64,000 bases of DNA from Candidatus Adlerbacteria bacterium (GTDB taxonomy: Bacteria > Patescibacteriota > Minisyncoccia > Phycocordibacterales > SBAW01). Shown one piece after another: positions 1 through 13,273 of the stretch. Where the stretch lies: assembly GCA_029288895.1 (NCBI GenBank), contig JARIGK010000001.1:1446-65445 (forward strand). The letters are read 5' to 3'. The translations under genes were made by a program, and so were the position numbers. The first letter of the stretch is position 1. Each line of letters begins with the position of its first letter. The notes below the pieces were generated by a model, which saw nothing but the letters and a program-made list of their open reading frames with translations, did no database searches and was not told the DNA's origin.

Positions 1-223
1 GCAACTTGGCATCCTGCTGCCGCTCGATGGGAATGTTTCACTTACAATAACGGTGATACGGATCTGTGGCGATACGTATCGTCTAGACCTGGACAATTTG
101 CTCACCGGCGTTATGAGTAGCTTGGACGACAAGCCTTTTATGCCAAGCGCACCGCTCTTGCGGGACGATGAACAAATAACGTCGGTGCATCTGAACCTCG
201 AGACCATTACCGGCGGCGCTTAA
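1..223 (+). CDS. 3' fragment of a RusA-family Holliday-junction resolvase-like gene (5' end outside the window)
   Basis: Frame 2 is open from position 2 to TAA at 221-223. It translates to ...TITVIRICGDTYRLDLDNLLTGVMSSLDDKPFMPSAPLLRDDEQITSVHLNLETITGGA. The DLDNL...DD.Q motif pattern resembles RusA. It is missing from the ORF track because it has no start codon in the window. Confidence 0.4.
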   Translation, partial: QLGILLPLDGNVSLTITVIRICGDTYRLDLDNLLTGVMSSLDDKPFMPSAPLLRDDEQITSVHLNLETITGGA

Positions 224-246
224 TTGCGCCGCCTTTTCTTTTGTTG
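208..246 (+). terminator. Rho-independent terminator
   Basis: GC hairpin ggcggcgc-ttaatt-gcgccgcc followed by ttttcttttg, directly after the TAA at 221-223. Confidence 0.7.
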
Positions 247-311
247 AGTCTGCGACTTAAATCTGGTACTGTAGCCATTGTTCAATAGGGTCTAAAAACG
301 TTCTAAAACAT

Positions 312-387
312 GCGCGCGTAGCTCAGTTGGTAGAGCATTCGACTGATACTCGAAAGGTCCTAGGTTCGATCCCTAGCGCGCGCACCA
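312..387 (+). tRNA. tRNA-Ile (anticodon GAT), CCA encoded
   Basis: Cloverleaf read by eye. Acceptor GCGCGCG/CGCGCGC, D-arm GCTC-AGTTGGTA-GAGC, anticodon stem TTCGA/TCGAA with loop CTGATAC (anticodon GAT), T-arm CTAGG-TTCGATC-CCTAG, discriminator A plus CCA. Confidence 0.9.
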
Positions 388-395
388 TAACCATT

Positions 396-827
396 ATGTC
401 CCTCGACGATCACCACAAACACTTTCTGGGTTATATAGCCCAGAAAGCGGTTATTGAGAAAGAGGGAAAAATTTTACTTGTTCAGTACCCGAATAATGGA
501 ACTCCTTTTGCTGGATATTGGGATTTGCCAGGTGGACGACTTAACGATTTTGAGACGGCGCTAGAAGGAGCTAAGCGGGAAGTGGAGGAAGAGATAGGGG
601 CCTCTGTAAACATCCATGAAGTTTTGGCCACAGGGGCCAATCGAGTTCGAGATGATTTCAAATTGTTTTATGTAATCTACCGAGCTTCCTTGGTTGATAC
701 AGAGCAGGGGCTTACGCCTGAAGTAGGAGAGATTGGCGCAATCGAATGGAAGGACAAGGCAGAATTCTTTAACACGCTTCCGTTGGTCTATAAAGGATAC
801 GCCGAAGCGCTCAAGGGCATAATCTAA
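396..827 (+). CDS. NUDIX hydrolase
   Basis: Nudix box GGRLNDFETALEGAKREVEEEIG. The track ORF begins inside the tRNA, so the start was moved to the first ATG after the tRNA (MSLDDHH...). Confidence 0.8.
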   Translation: MSLDDHHKHFLGYIAQKAVIEKEGKILLVQYPNNGTPFAGYWDLPGGRLNDFETALEGAKREVEEEIGASVNIHEVLATGANRVRDDFKLFYVIYRASLVDTEQGLTPEVGEIGAIEWKDKAEFFNTLPLVYKGYAEALKGII

Positions 828-896
828 ATTTTCGGTAGTGTGTAACCATAGCAGATTTTAGAAATATTTTATCTCCCGGAGAGTAGAGTAGGGTGT

Positions 897-1118
897 ATGT
901 ATAGCATTGCATCACCCTACTTTGTTTTGAACGACAAACCACAAAAGGAGAGTGAAAAGAAGGCGCGGCTCGAGCGGCAGTTTGCAGATTTGTACCATTT
1001 GTTTTTGCAGAAGGTTGCTTCGATGCCAGTGCAGAAAGCCGCCTCATACGAAGAAGAACAGCGCCTGTTGGCGCTGTTTTCCGAACTCCATGAATTGAAG
1101 CGCGAGCTTGAACGCTAG
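897..1118 (+). CDS. hypothetical small protein (73 aa, charged, predicted helical)
   Basis: ORF lying between the NUDIX gene and the convergent radC. Only ORF-level evidence. Confidence 0.3.
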   Translation: MYSIASPYFVLNDKPQKESEKKARLERQFADLYHLFLQKVASMPVQKAASYEEEQRLLALFSELHELKRELER

Positions 1119-1119
1119 C

Positions 1120-1866
1120 TTACTGGTAGGTGACAGGGACGCTCGAGTAGCCGTCCTTGGTAACGATGATGTGGTCGAGTATTTCGATGCCCATAATTTT
1201 GCCCGACTGGACAAGCTGCTTGGTAAATTCGATATCAGCCAAACTTGCCTGCATATTGCCCGAGGGGTGATTGTGTGCGAGCACAATAGCAACGGCCGAA
1301 TATTCGAGCGCGGGGCGGAATACTTCGCGCGGGTGCACCAAGTTGGCATCGATAGTGCCTATAGAAATGGCCTCGTCGTGGATGAGGCGGTGGTGGCTGT
1401 TTAAGTACAGTCCGCGCAACTGTTCTTTGGGAAGCGTGCGCATATCGTGCAAATATTCGTACGCATCTTGTGCTTCTTTAATGATGGTGCTGCCGGCATT
1501 GGACGGTTTAAAGAAGCGCTTGCCAAGCTCGGCACACGCCGCAAGCTGCAGCGCTTTGTTAAGCGGAATGCCGAGCGCTTTGCTCATCGCGTCAGGGTTG
1601 ATATTGCCTGTGATGCTTTGTTCGCCATACTCGCGTAGCATGCGTTTACTCATTGCGAGGACGTCTTCTTTAGTACTGCCGCGGCCAAGCACGATGGCCA
1701 GAAGTTCGGCATTAGAAAGTGCGCCTGCGCCCAGTGACAAAAACTTCTCACGAGGCTTTTGTTCAGGCGGAAGGTCGCGAAGTTTGTAGACGTGTTTTTT
1801 ATAGGTGCCGTCGAGGATATCGACCAAGAGCTGGTGGGAATCTTTAATCAAGTAGGTCTCTTTCAT
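1120..1866 (-). CDS. radC: RadC-family JAB/MPN domain protein
   Basis: HxHPSG JAMM motif (LAHNHPSGN) and an N-terminal HhH-like region (LSNAELLAIVLGRGS). The length is typical for the family. Confidence 0.9.
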   Translation of the reverse strand: MKETYLIKDSHQLLVDILDGTYKKHVYKLRDLPPEQKPREKFLSLGAGALSNAELLAIVLGRGSTKEDVLAMSKRMLREYGEQSITGNINPDAMSKALGIPLNKALQLAACAELGKRFFKPSNAGSTIIKEAQDAYEYLHDMRTLPKEQLRGLYLNSHHRLIHDEAISIGTIDANLVHPREVFRPALEYSAVAIVLAHNHPSGNMQASLADIEFTKQLVQSGKIMGIEILDHIIVTKDGYSSVPVTYQ

Positions 1867-1878
1867 ACTGAAAGCCTA

Positions 1879-3846
1879 TCACGAAATGAGCGGCAAACGC
1901 ATCAGGAGGGTAGTGCTTTGCCCCCATACGCTGTCCGCCTCGAGGCTCCCGCCGTGGCGCTCGGCGATGTGCCGCGCTAAGGCGAGCCCCAGGCCGCTGC
2001 CGCTGATATGTTCCGAGCCCTTTGCTCGCCAGAAGCGGTCAAAGATGTGGGGGAGGTCTCCGGGCGCAATACCGATACCTGTGTCTGTAATGGTCAGGAG
2101 GGCCGTGCCGCCATCTTTGGCCAGAGAGACGCTGATGGTCCGTTCGCCATCATCGCGCATATATTTGATGGAATTGCTCAAGAGCCCCACGACCGCCTCG
2201 CGGAGTTTATTGGCGTCGCCTTTGACATGAACATCCGCGGCGAGTGTGCTCTCCAAACGAATGCCGCGATCGGCCGCAATAATGTCGACTTCTTCAAGCA
2301 GGTCGGATAGGAGCGCCGAAAAATCAACATTGATGTGCGGTTCTTCCGCGCTATTTTCCAAACGTGCGAGCCGCAAGAAGTCGTTGATGAAAACAGAGAG
2401 TTCGCTAATGGACACTTCGAGTGCGCGAATGCCAGGGTCCTCGGGCGTCGTGGCTTTGAGGGTCTCGAGCTTGGTTTGGAGCACCGTCAGCGGCGTCTGC
2501 AGGTTATGAGAAATATCGAGCATCAGATGACGTTGGTCTTCTTGCAGTTGTTTGAGTTCTTGCGTGCGTTGTTCGACCTTATCTTCGAGTTCTGCTGCGT
2601 GTTCTTTTACCTGTTCGTAGAGGGTTGCGCGTGCGAGTGCCGTGGATGCTTGGAGTGCAAATGTCTCGAGTAGATGTTTGTCTTGCACGGTATAGTCATC
2701 CCCCGAGCGTTTGGCACCCAAAAATATATTCCCTACAACCTGGTCTTCAGACATGATGGGGATCGAAAGGACAGCGCCCAGTGCCACTTCGCTCCCTTGT
2801 ACCATAGACACTTTTTCCGCGCGCAAAATGCGCGTCAAATGATGTTCGCACTGGTATATCAACTCATTGATGTCGATGCTCGCATACAAACATTCTGTCA
2901 GTGTGCGCAGTGCCTGTGCGTAGTCATAGGTATCTTTGAAAAATATAGTGTCTGTGATCTTGCGGAACTGTTTCTCAAGGCGCGGGACTGTCAGAATGCC
3001 GATGAGTGTAGTTGCAACGGCGCTCGAAAACATACGGTCCGGGTCATCTTGGAAGAACATCGCAAGCATGCTTAATATCACTGAGTAGGAAGACACTACG
3101 AGTGCCAAGAGGGCGCTGTAGATAAGGCCGCGCTGGATGACGACGCGGATGTCGAGTAGTTGGTGGCGCACAATGGCGTATGCCGCTGCGGTTGCCATCA
3201 CGATTGCTGCAGAGGGTCCAAGCAAGATATACGAGAAGATGCCGAACGCGGGCAGAAGCGCATCGCCCAGCGCCGTGGCTGCGGCGCTTACGCCAACACC
3301 AAGCAACAGGTACGACAGCTGTGTGCGTTCGCGGCCCTGCGCGCGGAGATAATGGCGGACAAAAAGTGCCAAGCTTACACAGAGATACACGACAGTGGCA
3401 GTGGCGAAGACCCATACATACGGGCCATTGATTGGATGCCACGCACCATCTCTGCCGCGCTCCATGCTTTTGATGTAGGCGCCCGTGGAGCTAAATGCAA
3501 TAACGGCAAGTAATGGGAGCGAGCCCAGCAGTGCATAGCGCGGCAACTCTTTGCGGTCAGGGTAGACGCTCGAAAAAAGAAAGAGGCCGCCAAAGATAGG
3601 GAAGTCGCAATAGACAACAAATTGGCTATACCAAAAATTGCCCGTCAAAAGGAGTAACGATAGTAGTATCGACCACGCACCAAGCCCCCAAATAAAAAAG
3701 CAGAACAATTGGTTACTGCGACGTGTGGGCCCGTGCACAAGGACGAACAGTCCAATGCACACAAGCACGACCCCGACAACAATCTGTGCGTAATAAGCGT
3801 CCTGCATGGCGGTCCTACCCATTGTCTCAAGAAAAAGGGCCCGCAC
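1879..3846 (-). CDS. sensor histidine kinase with an N-terminal multi-TM (7TM-type) sensor, a GAF-like region and HisKA/HATPase_c domains
   Basis: Multiple hydrophobic helices at the N-terminus. H-box LDISHNLQTPLT; G-boxes ITDTGIGIAPGDLPHIFDRFWRA and GSGLGLALARHIAERHGGSL. Confidence 0.9.
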   Translation of the reverse strand: MRALFLETMGRTAMQDAYYAQIVVGVVLVCIGLFVLVHGPTRRSNQLFCFFIWGLGAWSILLSLLLLTGNFWYSQFVVYCDFPIFGGLFLFSSVYPDRKELPRYALLGSLPLLAVIAFSSTGAYIKSMERGRDGAWHPINGPYVWVFATATVVYLCVSLALFVRHYLRAQGRERTQLSYLLLGVGVSAAATALGDALLPAFGIFSYILLGPSAAIVMATAAAYAIVRHQLLDIRVVIQRGLIYSALLALVVSSYSVILSMLAMFFQDDPDRMFSSAVATTLIGILTVPRLEKQFRKITDTIFFKDTYDYAQALRTLTECLYASIDINELIYQCEHHLTRILRAEKVSMVQGSEVALGAVLSIPIMSEDQVVGNIFLGAKRSGDDYTVQDKHLLETFALQASTALARATLYEQVKEHAAELEDKVEQRTQELKQLQEDQRHLMLDISHNLQTPLTVLQTKLETLKATTPEDPGIRALEVSISELSVFINDFLRLARLENSAEEPHINVDFSALLSDLLEEVDIIAADRGIRLESTLAADVHVKGDANKLREAVVGLLSNSIKYMRDDGERTISVSLAKDGGTALLTITDTGIGIAPGDLPHIFDRFWRAKGSEHISGSGLGLALARHIAERHGGSLEADSVWGQSTTLLMRLPLIS

Positions 3847-3868
3847 AATGGCGGGCCCTCGAGAGAGC

Positions 3869-4456
3869 TTAAACGGGGCGGAACGTGTCGCACCGCATCC
3901 GGAAGAGGCACGGTGGCGGGTCGGACTGGTAGTATCGGCGCCCGGCTAGAGGTACTTTGCTCAGGTCAGGGAGCGAAGCAGCATTCTCTTCGAGAATGAT
4001 GCCAAGCTCGCGAAGTCGCTTAAAGGTGTACGGCCTCCCTTCGCTGATAAGCCACTCGATGCCTTGTGCCGCAGCAAAACGGCACGCCTCATGGAGTACC
4101 CGCAGCGACACAGAAGACTTTTGTTTGGATGAAAACCACCGTCCTGCTTGGGGATGGATACTTCGGCGATAGGTGATATCGCAGAAGAGTGCGGACACCG
4201 CGTCGTATCCGTACACTTCCTCAAGTGGATGCGGAGTGTGGTCATCGCGGAACTCGATATACATCGAGCCGACCACAACTTCGTCCTGCCATGCGCCAAA
4301 GAGGAACCCGCGCGGTGAGCACGGAGGAGCTTCGCACCCATGCGTGTTGTACGCATGGGTGCGGATGAAGGCATCGATCGCATCCCACTGGCCGGGCGTC
4401 CGAGCCAGGCGAGTTTCGATGCGTTCATCCGTGGGTAGGGCGGCACTCACCACCAC
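3869..4456 (-). CDS. hypothetical protein (195 aa), possibly a GNAT-fold or N-acyl-amino-acid-synthase-like acyltransferase
   Basis: The ORF overlaps the ThiF-like gene by 10 nt and ends 22 nt before the kinase gene, so it is co-operonic. There is no unambiguous motif and the fold assignment is tentative. Confidence 0.3.
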   Translation of the reverse strand: MVVSAALPTDERIETRLARTPGQWDAIDAFIRTHAYNTHGCEAPPCSPRGFLFGAWQDEVVVGSMYIEFRDDHTPHPLEEVYGYDAVSALFCDITYRRSIHPQAGRWFSSKQKSSVSLRVLHEACRFAAAQGIEWLISEGRPYTFKRLRELGIILEENAASLPDLSKVPLAGRRYYQSDPPPCLFRMRCDTFRPV

Positions 4457-5445
4457 ACCCCGGTGTGTGAGGTGGCCTTCATGTGCACCGCATCGAATGC
4501 CAAATATCCAGGCATCGAAGGGAGAGGCTCAAACATACGCGCACGCGCTGAGCGGGCGTACACGAGTTCAGTTATGATGCGATTGGCCATAAAGCCCGTC
4601 GCCATGGGAGGGTTCGACGCGATAATGCTCGCGCGGCCTTCACGGGTGAGGCGCTCCATAAAGGCATCCTTGGTGCTATAGGTACCGCCAGGGACCCCAT
4701 ATTCGGGTAGTGTGGGCACGAATGCCCGAAGGATGACTTCGATGATGTGGTCGCGGGTGGCCTGTTGCTCTGCCTCCGTACCCGCGCGGGTACGGATTGC
4801 ATGCTCGAGCTGCGTGGCTTTTTCATAGTTAAAGCCGAGCACTTCTTCAAGTGTCATGCTGTCGTGCGTGAACTTGAAGCAGAAGGTCGAGTGCCCAACC
4901 GTGTCGCAATTGAGTAGCGGGATCCGTTGCTCGCGGGCGCGAATGTGCAGCAGTACCCGTGCGCCGATCGAGAAGAACTCGATCTCGTCGGACACGAGGT
5001 CACATCCGTAGAGAAAATGCTCGACGGTGTCCTCGGTGATTCCTTGTGGATAGATCACTAAAGGAACATCATCCGAAATGGCGCGGATCATCCGGGCTGT
5101 TTCGAGCGCCTTAGACTTGCCGACGGTCGTACGGCCAGCGCCAAACTGCCGATTGATGTTCGACGTATCGAACTCTTCGCAATCGGCGATACGCACTTCG
5201 CCTACGCCTGCACGCACAAGCGTTGCAGCAATAAGTCCGCCCATACCGCCGCAGCCAGCAACGCCGACGACGGAGGTGTGCAGCATCTGCTGTTCGTCCG
5301 GTGCGAGCCATCCAATGTTGCGGTCGGTGCGTTCGCGGTAGTAGGCATCGCTCGCGTTCGTTGGCACAAGCCGGTAGATAACCCCAGGCTCTGCATGGTC
5401 GGGCACGTCAGTGCAGGTGACTATGCGCACACTTCGTTCACTCAT
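4447..5445 (-). CDS. ThiF/MoeB/E1-like adenylyltransferase family protein
   Basis: Rossmann motif VGVAGCGGMGGLIAATL with ADCEEFDTSNINRQ (E1-like ATP-binding signature). It carries N- and C-terminal extensions relative to minimal ThiF. Confidence 0.8.
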   Translation of the reverse strand: MSERSVRIVTCTDVPDHAEPGVIYRLVPTNASDAYYRERTDRNIGWLAPDEQQMLHTSVVGVAGCGGMGGLIAATLVRAGVGEVRIADCEEFDTSNINRQFGAGRTTVGKSKALETARMIRAISDDVPLVIYPQGITEDTVEHFLYGCDLVSDEIEFFSIGARVLLHIRAREQRIPLLNCDTVGHSTFCFKFTHDSMTLEEVLGFNYEKATQLEHAIRTRAGTEAEQQATRDHIIEVILRAFVPTLPEYGVPGGTYSTKDAFMERLTREGRASIIASNPPMATGFMANRIITELVYARSARARMFEPLPSMPGYLAFDAVHMKATSHTGVWW

Positions 5446-5596
5446 TGTGTACTCCTATGTAGAGGTGCTTTCAAAGGACGGAATCGTCCACCTCAAATCG
5501 TAAGAAAAAAGCGATAAAATCGGCCCAAGGTTTTTGTCAAAACTTTAAGTATTTTTTATAAATACTTTATAACTTTTATATCAAATGTTGTTCCGA

Positions 5597-6265
5597 TTAA
5601 ACCCCTATTTTGTAGCCGCGAGAGGGAACAGTTTGGATGATACGGCTCTTGCCCGAGTCGCCAATTTTCTTACGAAGCGATAGCATGTGCGACTCAATCG
5701 TATTGGAAAAGATGTCTGTGTTCATGTCCCAGACGTGCTCCAAGATCATGCCACGCGACAGCACGGTGCCTTCGTTTTGCATCAAATAATGCAGGAGCAT
5801 AAATTCTTTGCGCGTCAGGTAAATATCTTTTTTGCCGCGGCGCACCGTATATTTTTTTGCATCAAGCACGAGGTCACCGATCGTAAACATATCGCTTTCG
5901 ATTGGTTTGGGTCGGCGCAGCAGTGCGCGGACGCGCGCCAAAAGTTCGCTTAATACAAAGGGTTTTGTAAGGTAGTCGTCGGCGCCGGTATTTAAAAGGT
6001 CGACCTTTTTCAGTGCTTCGTTTGTCACCGACAATATTAAGATAGGTGTGGTGATGCCGCTCGTACGCACCTCGCGCAAGACCTCGATGCCTTCTTTTTT
6101 TGGCAACAGGTTGTCCAAAATAATGAGGTCGTACTCGTTGATGTGCGCCAGGTGGCTGCCTTGCTCGCCATCCTCTGCGACATCAACGGCAAAGTATTCT
6201 GCCTCGAGCGATTGCTTTATGAAATTCGCGATCTTTGGTTCGTCCTCGACCAGAAGTATCCTCAT
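5597..6265 (-). CDS. OmpR-family response regulator (receiver plus winged-helix domain)
   Basis: MRILLVEDEP...DLIILDNLLP receiver motifs. C-terminal TRKEFMLLHYLMQNEGTVLSR...RGYKIGV winged helix. Confidence 0.92.
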   Translation of the reverse strand: MRILLVEDEPKIANFIKQSLEAEYFAVDVAEDGEQGSHLAHINEYDLIILDNLLPKKEGIEVLREVRTSGITTPILILSVTNEALKKVDLLNTGADDYLTKPFVLSELLARVRALLRRPKPIESDMFTIGDLVLDAKKYTVRRGKKDIYLTRKEFMLLHYLMQNEGTVLSRGMILEHVWDMNTDIFSNTIESHMLSLRKKIGDSGKSRIIQTVPSRGYKIGV

Positions 6266-6329
6266 AAATTTATCGTTTTATTATCGCGGGCCTATGCCCA
6301 TCTTAGCACCGGCTCCCTATACTTTTTGT

Positions 6330-6461
6330 ATGGAACAAATACAGGACTACCGGTGTGCGTGCGGCAAATTACTCTGTAAGGGGGCACTTTTGGCAGGGCG
6401 TATCGAGATCAAATGCCGCCGGTGTGGCGAAATCGCTTCTCTACAGGTACGTTTGTTATAG
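6330..6461 (+). CDS. Com-like zinc-ribbon small protein (43 aa)
   Basis: MEQIQDYRCACGKLLCKGALLAGRIEIKCRRCGEIASLQVRLL has the CxC-GKLL...IEIKCRRC pattern of phage Mu Com-type zinc ribbons. It is the C-terminal part of track ORF 6048..6461, whose upstream part overlaps the response-regulator gene on the opposite strand. Confidence 0.5.
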   Translation: MEQIQDYRCACGKLLCKGALLAGRIEIKCRRCGEIASLQVRLL

Positions 6462-6468
6462 TGCGCGG

Positions 6469-7137
6469 ATGGACCGATGGGATGTTACTCCAAAAGAAGC
6501 GGTAGCGTTGCAGAAAACGCTTCGCTCGCAGGTGCAGCTTGTGCCCCTCAAAAAGAAACCAGCACTCATCGGTGGATGCGACGTGAGCATGAATAGATTC
6601 GCAAAGAACGGCTTTGCAGGGTTTGTGGTGCTTGACGCAGAGACGCTGCGGATGGTTGACCATGCTGTTATAGAAGACACCATTCCGTTTCCCTATATTC
6701 CAGGGTTACTTTCTTTTCGTGAGATCCCGATGCTTCTCAAAGCCTGGGAGAAACTCAAAACAAAACCTGATGTGATTGTGGTCGATGGTGTTGGTATTGC
6801 GCACCCGCGGCGGATGGGGATTGCAACGCATTTGGGATTGGTTTTGAATATTCCAACTATTGGCTGTGCCAAGAGCGTGCTGACAGGGGTGTACGATGAG
6901 CCGGGGGATGAGTTTGGTTCAGTCTCATATATGCATGACCCGAAGACAGACGAAGTGATTGGTGCTGCGCTGCGCACCAAAGTTGGAGTAACGCCCGTCT
7001 ACATTTCGGCTGGCAACGGAATCACTCTCGAAGAGTCGATCGGCATAGTACAACGATGCGTCATTAAGCACCGTCTGCCCGAACCGACGCGCCTGGCCCA
7101 CAATACGGTGAACGAATTTCGTCTTGCATCGCACTAA
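6469..7137 (+). CDS. nfi: endonuclease V (deoxyinosine 3' endonuclease)
   Basis: The start was moved to the internal ATG (MDRWDVTPKEA...). Conserved GCDVS...VVLD...LSFRE...VDGVGIAHPRRMGIATHLG signature of Nfi. Confidence 0.85.
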   Translation: MDRWDVTPKEAVALQKTLRSQVQLVPLKKKPALIGGCDVSMNRFAKNGFAGFVVLDAETLRMVDHAVIEDTIPFPYIPGLLSFREIPMLLKAWEKLKTKPDVIVVDGVGIAHPRRMGIATHLGLVLNIPTIGCAKSVLTGVYDEPGDEFGSVSYMHDPKTDEVIGAALRTKVGVTPVYISAGNGITLEESIGIVQRCVIKHRLPEPTRLAHNTVNEFRLASH

Positions 7138-7199
7138 TGCGTTTTGTATTCTGTACACGAATCAGTTGTTTTTATTTTGCTACCAGAAGGAGGTAGAGG

Positions 7200-7565
7200 A
7201 TGGGGAAGCCACACGAGATTCGTATTGCTGACGCCAAAAAAATAAAGCCGTCTGTGCGTGTACGTGAACCCGGACCGGCGGTTGATGAGAGCGAGTGCAA
7301 GCCGAAGATCTGGTTTGCCCCAAAGTCGCTCGTGCCACCCGCAGGCTGGGAACTCGGAAAAGTTATTGAAAATTTCCGGCCGGAGTACACCTACGGCTTC
7401 GTTGCTGTCGGGCGAAGGAGTGTCTACATCTCAAAATCTCTTTTTGATAGATGCCCTGGCTTTAAAGCCGGTGCTCAGGTTTTTGTGGAGATACAAGAAG
7501 GCTGCAATGGAGAGCGCCCACGAGTAAAGAATATATTGCTGGCAGTTTCTAAGCCGGCGACATAA
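7200..7565 (+). CDS. hypothetical protein with a possible cold-shock/OB-fold-like segment
   Basis: ORF preceded by a GGAGG at 7190-7194 and followed by a terminator. The GKVIENF...YGFV...VYISKS...GAQVFVEI pattern resembles cold-shock-domain topology. Confidence 0.45.
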   Translation: MGKPHEIRIADAKKIKPSVRVREPGPAVDESECKPKIWFAPKSLVPPAGWELGKVIENFRPEYTYGFVAVGRRSVYISKSLFDRCPGFKAGAQVFVEIQEGCNGERPRVKNILLAVSKPAT

Positions 7566-7567
7566 AG

Positions 7568-7600
7568 AAAAAGGGAGAAACTCTCCCTTATTTTTTTATG
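7568..7600 (+). terminator. Rho-independent terminator
   Basis: Hairpin agggagaaactctccct followed by tatttttttat. Confidence 0.7.
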
Positions 7601-7640
7601 TAAAGTACGGTATAAAAGAGAACACGTTCGTGCATTGTGT

Positions 7641-7723
7641 GGGCATGTGGCGGAATTTGGTATACGCGTACGTCTCAGAAGCGTATCCCGTAAGGGTTGG
7701 GAGTTCGAGTCTCCCCATGCCCA
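7641..7723 (+). tRNA. tRNA-Leu (anticodon CAG), class II with long variable arm; CCA not encoded
   Basis: Acceptor GGGCATG/CATGCCC, D-arm GCGG-AATTTGGTATA-CGC, anticodon stem TACGT/GCGTA with loop CTCAGAA (anticodon CAG), long variable arm TCCCGTAAGGGTT, T-arm GGGAG-TTCGAGT-CTCCC, discriminator A. Confidence 0.88.
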
Positions 7724-7825
7724 CAGAGCGCAGGAACCTGAAGAAATCTTCATAAAACATTCATCTGCTCTGCTATAGTTTTAATGGCGAGGAATAGCCT
7801 CGTATTTAAAAACTATTCTATTTGT

Positions 7826-8431
7826 ATGAACGAACAAAACAGGCCGTGGATTTGGGGCGGTGTCGCGGTGCTCGTGGTGCTGCTCGGGCTTTGGTGGTGG
7901 CACAGCGCACATACGTCTGCCGATTTGCAGGCGGCAGATTATGGCGCCCCAGCTGCGTCGTCGACCGATGCGCTCCAGGGCCCGACCACGTCAGTTGTGG
8001 CAGAAAATCGTGGCTCGTCGACCGTGATGGGGATACTGTCTAGCCTTTCAGGAGAGTCGCGCTTTGCTGGCCTCCTTGCCAATACGGGTGTCTCGGCAAG
8101 CATCTCGGGTAAGGGCCCGTACACGGTCTTTGTGCCAACCGATGCAAGCTTTGGCATGTTGCCCTCGGGCACCATCAACAACTTGAGCGCGTCGGAATTG
8201 AAGCGCTTGGTGCAATACCATGTCATCGCGGGCAAAGCGATTGATGTAAACGCACAAGTTGCAGGCACTGTCCCAGCATTATCGAAAGACATGCTTAACT
8301 TCAGCAAGAACGTCAATGATGTCAGTGCTCGCGTTAACAGCTCGGCTGTCATCCACGCATACAAAGCATCCAATGGCGTTGTGTATGTGATCGGAGCAGT
8401 ACTGTTGCCGCCCGTATCTACAACGCACTAA
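7826..8431 (+). CDS. fasciclin (FAS1) domain protein with an N-terminal signal anchor
   Basis: YTVFVPTDASFGMLP...LVQYHVIAGK FAS1 motifs plus a hydrophobic N-terminus. The start was chosen at the internal ATG 7826. Confidence 0.75.
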   Translation: MNEQNRPWIWGGVAVLVVLLGLWWWHSAHTSADLQAADYGAPAASSTDALQGPTTSVVAENRGSSTVMGILSSLSGESRFAGLLANTGVSASISGKGPYTVFVPTDASFGMLPSGTINNLSASELKRLVQYHVIAGKAIDVNAQVAGTVPALSKDMLNFSKNVNDVSARVNSSAVIHAYKASNGVVYVIGAVLLPPVSTTH

Positions 8432-9126
8432 TGCGCGTCACTTCGACTTACCTCGCGTAACAATTTGAGGTCGTCTGACCACTTCGAGCCGTCCCACCAT
8501 TGGAGCGGCTCGAAGTTCGTTTTATAAAGTGCATGTTCTCCGTACACAGTACCCAGATAGTAATATGTAAGGCCGCGCTCTTTCGCCGCGCGAATACAAT
8601 CGAGCATGAGCCACATGCCAAGCGACTGTCGTGCGTACTCGATATTGTAAAAGGAGTACCAGTAGTGGCCCATGTCGCCATCTTCGACTTCGAGCACGTA
8701 GGCCTCGATTACTCCATTAAGTGTGTAGGTGACGACGGTCGTGATAATGCCATACGCGAACAGTGCTTCGATGCGCGGGCGCGGCATAGCGTTGGCGCCG
8801 TGCTTTTGGGCAAAGTAGGTGAGCGACAAATCCCAGAAATGATCGTCTGGCACAAACTCAGCAAATGGGATGCGCTCTATGTCGAACGTGCCGTCGAAGC
8901 GCTTTGCGATGCGGCGGTTTTCGCTTGTGAGTTCAAACTTCGGCAGCACGACGCGGGCGCTGCGGCCAGAATAAAAAATGTCGGTGCTGTTCTTTGCGCC
9001 TGAATAGGGGAGATAGCCTTCTGCGTACACATGCGCGAGCGGCTCGCCTTCGCGCATAATCCACTTTGTATCTGGGCGCGCTATGTAGATGTCGAAATCT
9101 TTGTGGGGGAGCGAGATTGATTTCAT
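8428..9126 (-). CDS. arginyl/leucyl-tRNA--protein transferase (ATE/Bpt) family protein
   Basis: C-terminal LTYYYLGTVYGEHALYKTNFEPLQWWDG resembles the ATE1 C-terminal YYYLGYYIH...KMxYKxxFxP motif. Confidence 0.55.
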   Translation of the reverse strand: MKSISLPHKDFDIYIARPDTKWIMREGEPLAHVYAEGYLPYSGAKNSTDIFYSGRSARVVLPKFELTSENRRIAKRFDGTFDIERIPFAEFVPDDHFWDLSLTYFAQKHGANAMPRPRIEALFAYGIITTVVTYTLNGVIEAYVLEVEDGDMGHYWYSFYNIEYARQSLGMWLMLDCIRAAKERGLTYYYLGTVYGEHALYKTNFEPLQWWDGSKWSDDLKLLREVSRSDAH

Positions 9127-10538
9127 GCAGGAAATTGTTTCTCGGCCAATGCAGGAATGGATGCAAGCAACCCGTCGAAGCCGCCCGAGGTCAGCAACAG
9201 TACAGCGTCTGTACCTTGTAACTCGCCTTCAAGATGCGCGAGTGCTTCGGCAGGGCTCGTAATTGCCTCTGCGTCTATACCGCTTGCGTTGACGCGCGCA
9301 ACGATTTCTTCTTGTGAAAGTTGCTCGTGCGTGTCTTTGCCCTGCGATGCAGGCTCATATATATAGACACGGTCCGCACCCTGGAAGACATGGTCGTACC
9401 ACTCGAGTGCGGCGCGGTTTCGCCAACTAAACGTGTGCGGCTCAAACACGACAACAAGGCGGCGTTCGGGGAAATGTTTTTTCATCGCAGCGATGGCGCT
9501 CTTGGCCTTTTCGTACGACGAGCCAAAGCCTTCATACACAGGCACGCTTGAGCGGGGTGAGAGTAATTCCATGCGGCGCTTTACACCTTGGAACGATGCC
9601 ACACCGTGTGCCAATTCTTCCCGAGTGAGTGCGCCCTTTTCAAGCAAGAGGGCGCTTATGCCAACGATGTTTTCTATATTGTGTTCGCCAAGCAGTGTCG
9701 TTGAAAGAGAGATGATTTTTTCTTCTGCCTTCATCAGGTCAAACGTCGTGGTTGCGCCGTAGGAAATGTTTGCTGCGTGCCACGTCGATGCGTCGCGGAG
9801 CGAATACAGCACAATCTTTCCGGTATACGCGTCTGCTAATGCGCGTGCGTACTGTTCACCGCCGTTGGCAACAAGGAGGCCGTCTGCGGGGAGCGATGCG
9901 ATCAGTTGTGTAAATGGCGCGAGGTAGTCTGCGTGGGTGGGGTAGATGTTGACGTGGTCGTGCGTTGCAGATGTGAGCAAGATGCTCTGCGCGTTGTAGT
10001 GCAAAAATTTTGATTGTGCATCCCAGTTCGATGAGGGGTATTCGTCGCCTTCGAGCACAAACATAGTTCCTTGGCCGCGGTGGGCGTGCGCGTCAAAGCC
10101 GCGCGTCACTTCTCCAATAAAATAGCTCGGGTCTTTGCCTGCTTCTTTCAAACACCAGGCGAGCAATGCAGTGGATGTAGATTTCCCATAGCTGCCCGCA
10201 ACAACAATATTGTCAGTTTCTTTCGTGAGCTCTTCCAATACATCAGGGAATGACTTCACCGATTTACCGCTTTCAAATGCCGCTTGTACTTCTTCGTTTG
10301 TTTCAGGAACAAGTTTTGCGTTTTTACCGATCACTATAATGTCTGCATCAGCGGGGATATTCTCTTTTTTGTAGCCGTGGGAAAAGAGGATGTGCGCATG
10401 TTCAAGGTAGGTGCTTACGGGCGGGTAGAAGCCTTCGTCCGAGCCGCTAATGTCCCAGCCTGCTTCGCGCAAGAGTAGCGCCGTGGCGCTCATGCCTTTG
10501 CCAGCAATGCCAATAAAGTGGGCTTTCATATACGCCAT
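9123..10538 (-). CDS. mpl: Mur ligase of the Mpl/MurC family (UDP-N-acetylmuramate:L-alanyl-gamma-D-glutamyl-meso-DAP ligase-like)
   Basis: N-terminal HFIGIAGKGMSATALLLREAGWDISGSD, P-loop VAGSYGKSTSTALLAWCL, and DEYPSSNWDAQSKFLHYNAQSILLTSATHDH, which matches the Mpl-type SKFxHY block. Confidence 0.75.
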   Translation of the reverse strand: MAYMKAHFIGIAGKGMSATALLLREAGWDISGSDEGFYPPVSTYLEHAHILFSHGYKKENIPADADIIVIGKNAKLVPETNEEVQAAFESGKSVKSFPDVLEELTKETDNIVVAGSYGKSTSTALLAWCLKEAGKDPSYFIGEVTRGFDAHAHRGQGTMFVLEGDEYPSSNWDAQSKFLHYNAQSILLTSATHDHVNIYPTHADYLAPFTQLIASLPADGLLVANGGEQYARALADAYTGKIVLYSLRDASTWHAANISYGATTTFDLMKAEEKIISLSTTLLGEHNIENIVGISALLLEKGALTREELAHGVASFQGVKRRMELLSPRSSVPVYEGFGSSYEKAKSAIAAMKKHFPERRLVVVFEPHTFSWRNRAALEWYDHVFQGADRVYIYEPASQGKDTHEQLSQEEIVARVNASGIDAEAITSPAEALAHLEGELQGTDAVLLLTSGGFDGLLASIPALAEKQFPA

Positions 10539-10561
10539 GCTAGCACCTCATCAGATAAAGA

Positions 10562-10594
10562 AAAAACCGTTCCCTAGGTAGGGAACGGTTGATC
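10562..10594 (-). terminator. Rho-independent terminator (minus strand)
   Basis: Palindrome accgttccctaggtagggaacggt; on the minus strand it is followed by TTTTTTC. Confidence 0.7.
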
Positions 10595-11482
10595 TCACGA
10601 TTGTCGGACAGCAGCCATCAGACAGCGCAACTGCTTGTCGTTATTGCGCGTCGTATGGAAACCTTCGGGCAGATAGGCGTGGCGTGTTTCCACGTTGATG
10701 CGATAGTGCCCGAATTGTTCGCGAATGATCACGGGGAGGTCGATACCGAACATCGTGCCGTCCAGTTCTTTGAGAGCTTCGTCGCCGAAGCGAGACGGGA
10801 CATGCGTGTAGAGTTTCGGGTTGCGTCGCCTGTACTCCTCCTCTTTGACCTTCCGAGGATCGCGCTCGAAGTCGAAGTGCTCGGGCGGAATGGCCCACAT
10901 AACATGCGCTTCGACTTCTTGAGGTCTGAAAAGCGTACCTTTTGCCGTGCAGATGCCTTTCAGCTTCTGCACGGCTGAATCAACAACGCTCTCGTTTTCT
11001 CTTCCTCGTTCGGTGCCGTCGGAGTCGATCCACTTCTTGTCGACAAGGCACCAAAGCCCAGCGTGGAGGAAGAGGACGATGTGGCCGTAGATGAGTATGA
11101 TCATCGGGCAACCGCCGACACTAAAGACGCCTGCGTCGCCGGGGCGGCGCAGAAACGTCCCGTCGGCGTACACAGCTTTGTTCGTGCTCCGGTGCATCGT
11201 GATGTTGCGGCCAATAGGGAACGCGACATCAAGAGCGTCGGGGTCGATGATCTTGGCGTTGAAGTCGGTTGGGGTCGGTGCGTAGACATGGGTGGCGCCC
11301 ATGTCGCGCAGCGCCAGGCTCACGCGCCCACAGAGCTCCGACTTTTCTCGAGCCGCGGCTTCGCTGTAGAGGCCTGCAAGCGACCAGTTAGGGCCGCTCA
11401 TGCAGCTCATAGCGATTGTGACGCCGCTTCGGCTTTCGATGACGGTTTCAACGGGAGTGATTCCACGGGTCAGAATGTCCAC
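10595..11482 (-). CDS. DUF152/YfiH (PgeF-like peptidoglycan-editing, purine nucleoside phosphorylase LACC1) family protein
   Basis: AVYADGTFL...GDAGVFSVGGCPMIIL...HAGLWCL matches the ADG...GCxP...HAGWRG core of the YfiH/PgeF family. Confidence 0.55.
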   Translation of the reverse strand: MDILTRGITPVETVIESRSGVTIAMSCMSGPNWSLAGLYSEAAAREKSELCGRVSLALRDMGATHVYAPTPTDFNAKIIDPDALDVAFPIGRNITMHRSTNKAVYADGTFLRRPGDAGVFSVGGCPMIILIYGHIVLFLHAGLWCLVDKKWIDSDGTERGRENESVVDSAVQKLKGICTAKGTLFRPQEVEAHVMWAIPPEHFDFERDPRKVKEEEYRRRNPKLYTHVPSRFGDEALKELDGTMFGIDLPVIIREQFGHYRINVETRHAYLPEGFHTTRNNDKQLRCLMAAVRQS

Positions 11483-11571
11483 CGGTATCTCCTTTTGGGA
11501 TCAGTGAAAGGGCAGTTCGAACGTTAGAATGCGTAAATTTTCTTTAAATGTCAATCAAACTTCATGAAAAA

Positions 11572-11602
11572 GAAAAACCCAGGTCTTGGAAGACCTGGGT
11601 CA
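11572..11602 (-). terminator. Rho-independent terminator (minus strand)
   Basis: Hairpin cccaggtcttggaagacctggg; on the minus strand it is followed by a T-run (tttttctttttcat). Confidence 0.75.
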
Positions 11603-11632
11603 TGTTCAATTCGCTGCCCTGATGAGGCAAGG

Positions 11633-12154
11633 CTAGCCGTTGGCGCCGCCGACGGAGAGCTGGAGCGAACCGGACCAGCGATGGCCGAGCGGATAGTTGC
11701 CGGCCATGATCTGGTACTTCACCTTGTCGTGATATTGGTCACGAGCAACGCGTCCATCACCGCCGACGGGCCACTTGTTGATGCGACCGTTGCCATCCGC
11801 GGGCTTGATGACGCCGTTCTCGTTGCCGATTCCGCCCGTGCCGGTGCCCGGCCCGAACTTCATCTGCGCGACCAGGCCTTCGAAGGGATCCTTGAGCACT
11901 TCGCCGACACCTTCGCTCGCGGCGAGGATGTGCAGAGTGCCAGGATCGATGATCGTCTGTTCGATCGGCATCATGGAGATCTGGTTGGCCATCTTGATGG
12001 CGTCCAGGTTCATGCCGACGATCTTGTCGGTCGGTCCGATCACGACGATGTTGAACCCGCGCAGGTCGAGGTTCTTGTCGATCGCCAGGGCCGGTGCGCC
12101 CATCACGGGGAGCCCAATAAGCGCCACCGCTGTTACCAAAGCTTTCTTCATCAT
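11633..12154 (-). CDS. secreted hypothetical protein (signal peptide, Gly-rich C-terminus)
   Basis: N-terminal MMKKALVTAVALIGLPVMGAPALA signal peptide. No recognisable catalytic motif. Confidence 0.55.
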   Translation of the reverse strand: MMKKALVTAVALIGLPVMGAPALAIDKNLDLRGFNIVVIGPTDKIVGMNLDAIKMANQISMMPIEQTIIDPGTLHILAASEGVGEVLKDPFEGLVAQMKFGPGTGTGGIGNENGVIKPADGNGRINKWPVGGDGRVARDQYHDKVKYQIMAGNYPLGHRWSGSLQLSVGGANG

Positions 12155-12299
12155 CTCCTCCTGAGTGAGAGTTTAGACGCGTACGCTTTGCAAATCTAAA
12201 AAAGAACTCCACCCCCTTTCACCTATGAGCATTTCATAGTGGGCCAATTATGCAAGAGCTAGACGTGCATAAGGATGTCGTGTCTGGTATCACTTATGT

Positions 12300-12962
12300 A
12301 TGTCAAAGCTTTCTGTCGTCGCGACCCCTATAGGCAACTTGGAAGATATAACCCTCCGCGCGCTGCGCATATTAAAGGAGGCGGACATCGTCGCGTGCGA
12401 AGATACGCGCGTCACCAAAAAGCTGCTCGCGCACTTTGATATTCATACACCCACCGCAACGCATGCGCGCGTGCTATCACTTTTAGAAGAAGGTAAACAT
12501 GTGGCGCTTGTGTCTGATGCAGGGAGTCCTGGTGTGTCGGACCCAGGTTTGGAAATTGTTTCCCACGCTCGCGACGCGGGCCACACAATAGAAGTCATTC
12601 CAGGTGCTTCTGCACTTGCGGCTGCTATTTCTATCGCAGGCCTGCGCGCGCCAACATTTACCTTCTATGGGTTTTTGCCAACCAAAAAGGGGAGAGAAAC
12701 ACTCTTTAAAGAAATTGCAGAAAGTACTCGCGCAAGCGTCTTCTACGAATCACCGCACCGGATTGTTAAAACAGTCGAGAAGCTATACGAATTACTCGGC
12801 AGTACGGGTAAAGGGCACGTGAGGCGCGTGGGACTTTTCCGCGAGCTGACCAAGATGTTCGAAGAGCACATTGTAGGTACGCCGGCCGAGATTTTGGAGG
12901 CTTTCGAGAGTGACGCCAACAAGCAGCGGGGCGAATTTGTCGTCATTGTGGAGGCGGCCTAG
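12300..12962 (+). CDS. rsmI: 16S rRNA (cytidine1402-2'-O)-methyltransferase
   Basis: LSVVATPIGNLEDITLRALRILKEADIVACEDTRVT...SDAGSPGVSDPG tetrapyrrole-methylase-type RsmI signature. Confidence 0.9.
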   Translation: MSKLSVVATPIGNLEDITLRALRILKEADIVACEDTRVTKKLLAHFDIHTPTATHARVLSLLEEGKHVALVSDAGSPGVSDPGLEIVSHARDAGHTIEVIPGASALAAAISIAGLRAPTFTFYGFLPTKKGRETLFKEIAESTRASVFYESPHRIVKTVEKLYELLGSTGKGHVRRVGLFRELTKMFEEHIVGTPAEILEAFESDANKQRGEFVVIVEAA

Positions 12963-12983
12963 CGGTTGTGCTACCATGTGGGC

Positions 12984-13232
12984 ATGTCTCGAGAAATGAC
13001 GCTCATCGTGCTGGGTATTTTGACCATCGTTATTCCGTATACCGGCTTCCCAAGCGCATGGCGTACCGCAGCGCTTGTCTTGTGCGGCGCGGCAGTGGCA
13101 CTCATCGGCTTTATGATGCGCGGCCAAGCACTCGGCAAATCTTCTGCTACGAACGAACATCATCCATTTCAAGAAAGCATGCGCCCTGTAAGTGACATCC
13201 GTCCAAGTGGGATGGAAGAACAGCTGAGCTAA
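12984..13232 (+). CDS. small membrane protein (two predicted TM helices)
   Basis: Hydrophobic segments LIVLGILTIVIPYTGF and AALVLCGAAVALIGFMM. ORF-level evidence only. Confidence 0.35.
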   Translation: MSREMTLIVLGILTIVIPYTGFPSAWRTAALVLCGAAVALIGFMMRGQALGKSSATNEHHPFQESMRPVSDIRPSGMEEQLS

Positions 13233-13273
13233 AGTCTTTTCTTCATATTGTGCTGGTATACTTCTAGAAAGGT

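Follow-up and report, generated by a model that had tools for sequence, protein, structure and literature searches.

A synthase paired with a ThiF-like cyclase yields N-acyl oxazolones in Pseudoalteromonas rubra and Mycobacterium tuberculosis (bioRxiv 10.1101/2020.06.11.147165; PMC10404671; PMC12856293). Such pairs are a recent discovery, and their N-acyl oxazolone products have no established biological role. In M. tuberculosis, TyzA has FeeM and BjaI as its nearest structures, and its partner TyzB is a stand-alone ThiF homolog that cyclizes N-acyl-tyrosine with ATP; in TrzA/TrzS of the same species, the saturated N-acyl amino acid is cyclized first, and the aspartate of the adenylation motif is essential (PMC12856293). 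According to a 2025 review, the oxazolone cyclase stands alone among ThiF-like enzymes in acting on a small molecule, which it does after the acyltransferase (PMC12596934). In genomes of the Candidate Phyla Radiation (CPR), Bernard et al. (2020) reported 18 LuxI homologs adjoining sensor kinases as candidate quorum-sensing systems (PMC7567580). Here, we describe a locus of Candidatus Adlerbacteria, a member of the Patescibacteria, in which the genes of a ThiF-like enzyme and of a divergent acyl-synthase-fold protein lie between those of a response regulator and a membrane sensor kinase. The locus lies in a 64,000-nucleotide stretch of contig JARIGK010000001.1 (positions 1,446 to 65,445), hereafter the window. 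With moderate confidence, we read it as a small-molecule module, of the N-acyl amino acid or oxazolone type, that is coupled to a two-component system.

A preliminary description of the locus had placed five minus-strand genes at window positions 1120 to 6265, with a 151-bp spacer behind the regulator gene and a 12-nt gap between the kinase gene and radC. Open reading frame (ORF) calls and Pfam searches recovered the same five ORFs, all on the minus strand, at the same coordinates. The features of the locus are as follows, in the order of transcription:

5597..6265, minus strand: OmpR-family response regulator, 222 aa (Pfam)
5446..5596, minus strand: regulator-ThiF spacer, a candidate regulatory region, 151 bp
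4447..5445, minus strand: ThiF/E1-like adenylating enzyme, a predicted carboxylate-activating cyclase, 332 aa (Pfam ThiF)
3869..4456, minus strand: N-acyl synthase-like GNAT of a divergent LuxI/FeeM-fold family, 195 aa, likely start at 4450
3828..3860, minus strand: intrinsic-terminator-like hairpin at the synthase-kinase junction (stem-loop and T-run)
1879..3846, minus strand: sensor histidine kinase with seven-transmembrane (7TM), GAF, HisKA and HATPase_c regions, 655 aa (Pfam)
1120..1866, minus strand: RadC, 248 aa (Pfam, NCBIfam)
1057..1078, minus strand: terminator-like hairpin downstream of radC, 9-bp stem

The layout of the four genes from regulator to kinase recurs in other genomes. 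Related loci comprised 2 genome loci (L002 and L003) and 80 metagenome loci, annotated with hidden Markov models of the components, and 44 non-redundant loci carry a cassette-type ThiF gene. Of 28 loci evaluable for the kinase, 25 have a homologous 7TM kinase gene downstream of ThiF, and a homologous OmpR-type regulator gene lies upstream in 23 of 33 (in two of them on the opposite strand). The acyl synthase is adjacent or fused to ThiF in 32 of 36 loci (3 fused). Because the ThiF proteins of related loci are only ~45 to 55% identical to that of the window, the layout is not recent shared synteny; the order regulator, ThiF, synthase, 7TM kinase is conserved across Patescibacteria and is not accidental. 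The preliminary description had seen in the position of the ThiF gene inside a two-component system a sign of signal-controlled protein or peptide tagging. These counts uphold the position; the tagging is not supported by the evidence set out below.

Several cassettes carry further enzyme genes in their interior: a gene for an S-adenosylmethionine (SAM) methyltransferase in L002, a SAM methyltransferase fused to an arginine-deiminase/DDAH-fold domain in L012, stand-alone arginine-deiminase-fold proteins in L014 and L050, a beta-ketoacyl synthase in L014, and a GT1 glycosyltransferase between ThiF and synthase in L015. Judged by their families, these inserted genes encode tailoring enzymes of the kind that marks a biosynthetic gene cluster and not a protein-modification system. 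The components also differ in how fast they change. In eight complete cassettes, the median identity is 60% for the regulator, 56% for ThiF, 36% for the membrane domain of the kinase, and 27% for the synthase. A fast synthase and kinase membrane domain beside a conserved regulator and ThiF would fit diversification of a signal and its receptor.

The 195-aa protein encoded next to ThiF itself matches no Pfam or NCBIfam model, and word-index searches with the protein or its profile gave just 2 to 4 proteins. An exhaustive profile search was required, and it returned 100 cluster representatives, nearly all of 180 to 215 aa, so the ORF is conserved and not an orphan. Pfam assigns 31 of 62 aligned family members to PF12261 T_hemolysin (thermostable hemolysin) and 22 to PF21926 FeeM (N-acyl amino acid synthase). 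An earlier structural model built from 3 sequences was unusable (predicted local distance difference test score [pLDDT] of 43); the AlphaFold (AF2) model from the 62-sequence alignment that replaced it reached a pLDDT of 93.7. The top PDB matches of this model in Foldseek were the N-acyl homoserine lactone (AHL) synthases LasI, MesI, TofI, RpaI, BjaI, and EsaI, together with FeeM (E ~1e-7, TM score ~0.6, 10 to 17% identity). In hhalign, the family aligned over 171 columns (96% probability, E 4e-9) with FeeM/Acetyltransf_5-like domains, here called type A, which hold the equivalent genomic position in other loci. The preliminary description had guessed at an acyltransferase fold, and family-level Pfam matches, model, Foldseek, and hhalign all confirm it. 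As modeled, the 195-aa protein has the LuxI/FeeM N-acyl-synthase (GNAT) fold and belongs to a divergent family that Pfam does not recognize; current domain libraries miss a large share of this synthase family. Membership in the LuxI family proper (PF00765 or TraI-type models) was rejected, as the protein matches no such model and is similar at the level of fold only. LuxI/LuxR-type AHL quorum sensing was rejected as well, because the neighboring regulatory genes encode a histidine kinase and a response regulator of the OmpR type, not a LuxR-type receptor.

In the ThiF-like enzyme, the Pfam ThiF domain spans residues 42 to 323 of 332 (E 6e-29), behind an N-terminal extension of ~40 aa. Among NCBIfam models, PRK08223 scores best (147 bits), followed by PRK14851 (113 bits), PRK14852 (90 bits), and the Rv1355c family (78 bits). 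A nitroreductase protein encoded in related locus L032 maps to the C-terminal halves of PRK07877 (Rv1355c), PRK14851, and PRK14852, and these three are therefore read as fusions of ThiF with a flavin oxidase, which is the architecture of oxazolone synthetases. The window ThiF scores best against NCBIfam models of that architecture. Ranked lower are ThiF (TIGR02356, 69 bits against a cutoff of 275), MoeB (PRK08762, 56 bits against 449), SAMP E1 (51 bits), and TcdA (51 bits). A role as a MoeB/ThiF sulfur-carrier adenylyltransferase was rejected on these scores, far below the equivalog cutoffs, and on the absence of CxxC zinc motifs; no CxxC motif occurs in the window ThiF or in an alignment of 30 homologs. 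The preliminary description would have counted a firm grouping with these sulfur-carrier activators against its reading, and the enzyme shows no such grouping. Across the same 30 homologs, the ATP-site residues R39, R42/N43, G64 to G70, D88, N98/R99/Q100, K112, and D153 are invariant, as is C148, and C180 is nearly so. D153 aligns with the motif aspartate of TcdA, and mutation of its counterpart in TrzS kills the cyclase (PMC12856293). The adenylation site of the window ThiF is, by this conservation, predicted to be intact. The PDB sequence closest to the enzyme is that of TcdA (E no better than 2e-14), followed by the ThiF-type proteins 9egb/9egc, for which a literature search found no descriptive paper.

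The window ThiF has several hundred homologs at ~50% identity, nearly all of them from Patescibacteria; Parcubacteria, Paceibacterota, Azambacteria, and Liptonbacteria are among the source names. Seven of the homologs listed are fusions of 490 to 527 aa with ThiF at the N terminus; their C-terminal domain is FeeM/LuxI-like in some and homologous to the 195-aa protein in others, and the N-to-C order is that of the two separate genes. In the window, the 195-aa ORF overlaps the ThiF stop codon, and its third GTG (4450) is the likely start, giving a GTGA start/stop overlap that is probably the classic mark of translational coupling. The comparative evidence thus supports a functional pair of the ThiF-like enzyme and the 195-aa synthase. 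Apart from this family, a distant ThiF subfamily (L056, L060, L062, and L070 to L079; e.g., L070:4080-6706) scores 214 to 240 bits against the cassette ThiF profile. An aspartate/ornithine-carbamoyltransferase-like gene is next downstream in all five loci scanned (L056, L060, L062, L070, and L078), and an ArsR/MarR-type helix-turn-helix gene lies upstream in both loci checked (L062 and L070). This may be another pair, acting on an N-carbamoyl amino acid.

The presence of RadC, a JAB-domain protein, had led the preliminary description to propose a prokaryotic conjugation system, in which the E1-like enzyme would activate a ubiquitin-like protein (Ubl) and the JAB domain of RadC would process or remove it. 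The E1-like and JAB-domain genes are indeed no more than 3.3 kb apart on one strand, and a radC gene directly follows the kinase gene in four loci that are spread over three separate ThiF clades. These are the window, L015 (8172-8909), L042 (10708-11484), and a partial copy in L034 (10725-11069), with radC 2 to 12 nt past the kinase stop codon. Counted over evaluable non-redundant loci, however, RadC directly follows the kinase in just 3 of 19 (the window, L015, and L042) and is missing from the other 16. It is also, by its domains and scores, a canonical full-length RadC of the housekeeping type (JAB domain PF04002, E 1.5e-40; UPF0758_N PF20582, E 8e-17; 211 bits against the NCBIfam equivalog cutoff of 180 for PRK00024 [NF000642]), and the only one within the window. 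RadC recurs too often to be a coincidence and too seldom to belong to the core; it is a neighbor in this genome, outside the core of the cassette and its mechanism. The other parts of a conjugation system are missing too. No ORF of 40 to 130 aa ending in GG occurs on either strand in window positions 1 to 14000, no E2 was found, and the 195-aa partner is a GNAT. The conserved partner of ThiF is an acyl synthase, sometimes fused to it. Ubl conjugation is therefore largely refuted, and we regard it as very improbable.

The preliminary description had also considered a microcin C-like pathway, with the ThiF-like enzyme adenylating a short ribosomal peptide as MccB does and the GNAT providing immunity in the manner of MccE. 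An E1-like enzyme plus a GNAT is indeed the MccB/MccE combination too (PMC12250964), but a substrate peptide is hard to place. Of the short ORFs in the 151-bp spacer, none has Asn as its last residue (these residues are I, Q, L, or T), which leaves no credible peptide ORF. The equivalent spacers measure just 25 to 95 bp in L023, L024, L027, L031, and L044, and synthase-kinase gaps are as small as 3 bp, so there is no room for a conserved precursor peptide. The MccB match is confined to the Rossmann core (profile positions 51 to 119, chain residues 109 to 180, E 1e-7), with no match to the peptide-clamp domain of MccB; the GNAT belongs with the LuxI/FeeM acyl synthases and not with acetyltransferases of the RimL/MccE type; and exporter and peptidase genes are absent. 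We give this pathway very little credence. With the evidence against tagging and the pairing of ThiF with a synthase taken together, the data fit N-acyl amino acid or oxazolone chemistry of the OxzAB/TyzABC/TrzAS kind instead.

In the small-molecule reading that we favor, the 195-aa synthase would attach an acyl group to an amino acid, at its amine, or to a related amine. The ThiF-like enzyme, by analogy with OxzB, TyzB, TrzS, and TcdA, would then adenylate the free carboxylate of the N-acyl product with ATP. Attack by the amide oxygen, or by another internal nucleophile, would give a reactive cyclized compound, for example a 5(4H)-oxazolone. Because no flavin desaturase is present, the predicted product is a saturated oxazolone or some other cyclized or ligated derivative.

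An alternative hypothesis is that the ThiF-like enzyme acts first. It would adenylate a carboxylic acid, such as a scavenged fatty acid, and pass the acyl-adenylate, or an acyl-cysteine thioester, to the GNAT, which would make a linear N-acyl amino acid. This route would replace the acyl-coenzyme A (acyl-CoA) or acyl-acyl carrier protein (acyl-ACP) donors that bacteria with small genomes may lack, and CPR bacteria generally do lack fatty acid and CoA biosynthesis. Gene order and fusion order, with ThiF ahead of the synthase, agree with it, as do the invariant C148, the nearly invariant C180, and the absence of a flavin desaturase from the 64-kb window. On the other side, we know of no ThiF-family enzyme that activates fatty acids. 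The sole small-molecule enzyme of the ThiF-like group, the oxazolone cyclase, acts after its acyltransferase (PMC12596934), and characterized partner synthases use acyl-CoA or acyl-ACP. We consider this order of reactions, and with it a substitute for such donors, unlikely.

The coupling to signal transduction rests on the two flanking genes and on the DNA between them. The regulator is of the OmpR type (Response_reg, E 2e-25; Trans_reg_C, E 2e-24), and the kinase carries HisKA_7TM (E 7e-12), GAF_2, HisKA, and HATPase_c domains. Receiver, winged-helix, HisKA, and HATPase_c domains all exceed the Pfam gathering thresholds, and the two proteins are thereby an OmpR/histidine-kinase two-component system. 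A hydropathy scan of the kinase found ~8 hydrophobic segments in residues 19 to 264, joined by short loops, with no sizeable external loop. A lipophilic ligand, for instance the product of the pair, would be a good match for a kinase without an extracytoplasmic domain.

At the synthase-kinase junction, a hairpin with a 10-bp stem containing 8 GC pairs (3860 to 3835; GAGGGCCCGC-CATTGT-GCGGGCCCTT, followed by TTTTCTT) spans the nominal GTG start of the kinase gene, whose true start is probably the ATG at 3822 or 3807. A hairpin and T-run occupy the matching junction in ~17 of 21 related loci; such conservation suggests regulated termination of transcription or read-through into the kinase gene. 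A second hairpin follows radC (9-bp stem with 6 GC pairs, AACAGCGCC-AACA-GGCGCTGTT, then CTTCTTC). The 12-nt gap between the kinase gene and radC is free of hairpins, and the two genes are probably cotranscribed in the window. Several related loci have a terminator 3' of the regulator gene. Within the 151-bp spacer of the window are an AT-rich palindrome (AAGTATT...AATACTT, ~5567 to 5547), a TTGACA hexamer (5540 to 5535), and a single TTTATC (~5518 to 5513). Upstream of ThiF in 21 loci, TCTTTA/TTTATC is enriched (16 TCTTTA against 2.4 expected), with tandem copies at 11-bp spacing in L007, L014, and L015; a spacing of 11 bp is as expected for an OmpR-family site, which makes the motif a candidate for binding of the regulator. 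A repeated TCTTTATC-like form of this motif lies 5' of ThiF in several loci, and the enrichment of TCTTTATC across loci is real.

The preliminary description had called the five genes an operon. They are co-oriented, yet because of the synthase-kinase hairpin and the palindrome and TTGACA hexamer of the spacer, they are probably not one simple transcript. With terminator-like hairpins on both sides, ThiF and synthase would be transcribed as a unit of their own that sits between the regulator and kinase genes.

From this layout, the phosphorylated regulator would drive the ThiF-synthase promoter, and the lipophilic product would be the ligand of the 7TM kinase, closing an autoinducer-type loop comparable to CqsA/CqsS or agr. 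This is the arrangement that we favor, unproven as it is. In its full form, the circuit would have the desaturase-less pair make a labile cyclized N-acyl amino acid, the 7TM-GAF kinase sense it within the membrane, and the regulator feed back on the ThiF-synthase promoter. All of these parts together we hold to be doubtful.

The main rival to an autoinducer is a response module. Here, the 7TM-GAF kinase would sense a cue that is external or comes from the envelope (a host-derived lipid, for example, or membrane stress), and the regulator would then switch on ThiF and synthase. Their product would be an effector lipid that serves as an antibiotic, as a host-modulating N-acyl amide, or as a lipid of the membrane or surface. 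We regard this, including the range of effectors, as a possibility to be held tentatively. N-acyl amino acids serve as antibiotics, membrane constituents, and host-receptor ligands, and antibiotics induce oxazolone production in P. rubra. Terminators bracket the output genes as a unit between regulator and kinase, some loci (L001, L005, and L035) have a ThiF-synthase pair but no two-component system, and the divergence of the synthase and that of the sensor domain of the kinase are uncorrelated. Against a response module, signal-synthase genes inside their own sensor operon are a hallmark of autoinduction (agr, com, CqsA/CqsS), and a lipophilic ligand such as the product would suit a kinase lacking an extracytoplasmic domain. 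The evidence does not decisively separate the response module from the autoinducer.

A number of observations weigh against our small-molecule signaling interpretation. L001, which holds the closest relative of the pair (ThiF 67% and synthase 63% identical), lies on a contig of 5.7 kb that carries no genes of a two-component system; the kinase is also missing in L005 and L035; and in L008, L044, and L048 the kinase gene directly follows ThiF, with no synthase between. Distances between synthases and between kinase membrane domains showed no correlation in a mirror-tree comparison, which had low power (rho 0.01, 28 pairs), and so lend no support to coevolution of signal and receptor. In the window, the candidate regulator motif is present in a single copy, which is weak evidence for regulation there. 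As to the chemistry, every NCBIfam score of the window ThiF lies under the curated cutoff (266 to 1337 for the four best models). A phmmer search with the L032 nitroreductase found no homolog among window ORFs of at least 60 aa, and in related loci no nitroreductase gene adjoins a CPR-type ThiF gene, L032 excepted. Absence of the desaturase may mean that the end product is not an oxazolone. CPR bacteria mostly lack fatty acid synthesis, which puts the source of the acyl donor in question.

Some of these loci have features of their own. In L001 (1125-4542), the ThiF-synthase pair adjoins an AAA_15/AAA_21 ATPase gene and several small ORFs. The layout of ThiF then kinase without a synthase (L008, L044, and L048/L049) has gyrB upstream in L048. 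L032 (1-5310) contains a split TrzS-like pair, with a ThiF that scores 312 bits to the Rv1355c family, then a nitroreductase-family oxidase, with a histidine kinase following; a cassette-type ThiF lies ~500 bp farther along. By this layout, an oxidase-containing module of the oxazolone type is also kinase-linked in L032.

Around the cassette, which is flanked by tRNA-Ile (312-387) and tRNA-Leu (7641-7724), the 64-kb window holds no further regulator, kinase, ThiF, or RadC homolog and no nitroreductase homolog. At its 5' end, the longest NUDIX ORF (327-827) runs into the tRNA-Ile(GAT) gene at 312-387, and the NUDIX gene must therefore start downstream of the mechanical ORF call. Further along, a minus-strand gene (8428-9126) encodes a 232-aa protein with Acetyltransf_6 and ATE_C matches (arginyl-tRNA-protein-transferase-like or Fem-like). 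Upstream of it, with a 4-nt overlap, is a 471-aa ORF (9123-10538, minus strand) that is Mur-ligase-like by eye only; this pair may be involved in cell wall peptide chemistry. A 295-aa ORF (10595-11482, minus strand) has no Pfam match.

If the small-molecule interpretation holds, a desaturase-less variant of the synthase-cyclase pair, placed between sensor and regulator genes in dozens of divergent Patescibacteria, is a direct genomic tie of this chemistry to signal transduction. It also adds an ATP-dependent partner to the LuxI-like/kinase gene pairs noted earlier in CPR genomes. Retention of the module by host-attached bacteria with ~1-Mb genomes would imply that chemical communication or host-responsive lipid production matters for their lifestyle. 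The autoinducer circuit, if true, would be the first proposed role of ThiF-made oxazolone-type lipids as signals, and would amount to a lineage-specific chemical language of ultra-small episymbiotic bacteria. The system is compact and testable, as it consists of four genes with a single promoter region and a single predicted product, which is lipophilic.

How the cassette compares with described systems depends on which of its parts is considered. In CqsA/CqsS, LqsA/LqsS, and agrBDCA, a signal-producing enzyme is encoded with a polytopic kinase that lacks a large external domain, and with a regulator. The window resembles these systems in architecture only, with its enzyme genes beside those of a polytopic kinase and a regulator. 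Its enzymes are unrelated to the pyridoxal phosphate-dependent synthases of Cqs and Lqs and to the peptide processing of agr, and a signal role here is predicted.

At the level of the single enzyme, TcdA, the tRNA ct6A dehydratase, is a ThiF-like protein that adenylates a carboxylate beside an N-acyl/carbamoyl group and so drives cyclization to an oxazolone (PMC12596934). It is the closest sequence relative of the window ThiF among solved structures (E 2e-14). Unlike TcdA, which acts on tRNA, the window ThiF reaches 51 bits against a TcdA equivalog cutoff of 304 and sits in an entirely different gene context.

Compared with the CPR pairs of Bernard et al. (PMC7567580), the window likewise has an acyl-synthase-fold gene immediately 5' of a membrane sensor kinase gene, and the cassettes with type A FeeM/LuxI-like domains (L010, L023, L028, L036, and L051) are probably the same kind of locus. 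Whereas those pairs relied on recognizable similarity to LuxI, the 195-aa family lacks it. In the parts of that paper and its supplements available to us, neither "ThiF" nor "adenylyltransferase" occurs, and the cassette of regulator, ThiF, synthase, and kinase is not described; a literature search found no paper on this four-gene arrangement.

The closest comparison is with the oxazolone synthetases OxzA/OxzB, TyzABC, and TrzA/TrzS. These have a flavin-dependent oxidase of the nitroreductase family, found with every characterized system, and the window has none, fused or adjacent. Unlike theirs, the window synthase matches no domain model, and the genes of a two-component system enclose the pair; window-type cassettes occur in Patescibacteria, not in Proteobacteria or Actinobacteria. 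Because the oxidase, one defining feature, is absent, we do not class the cassette as an oxazolone synthetase. It shares with them a synthase gene of the FeeM/AHL-synthase fold that adjoins the gene of a ThiF-like ATP-dependent enzyme. As for TyzA, FeeM and BjaI are among the nearest structures of the 195-aa synthase. The window ThiF keeps the aspartate of the adenylation motif, and its best NCBIfam models, although scoring below cutoff, share the architecture of oxazolone synthetases. By a likeness drawn through these models and not through the TyzB or OxzB sequences, the cassette would work in the manner of the oxazolone synthetases.

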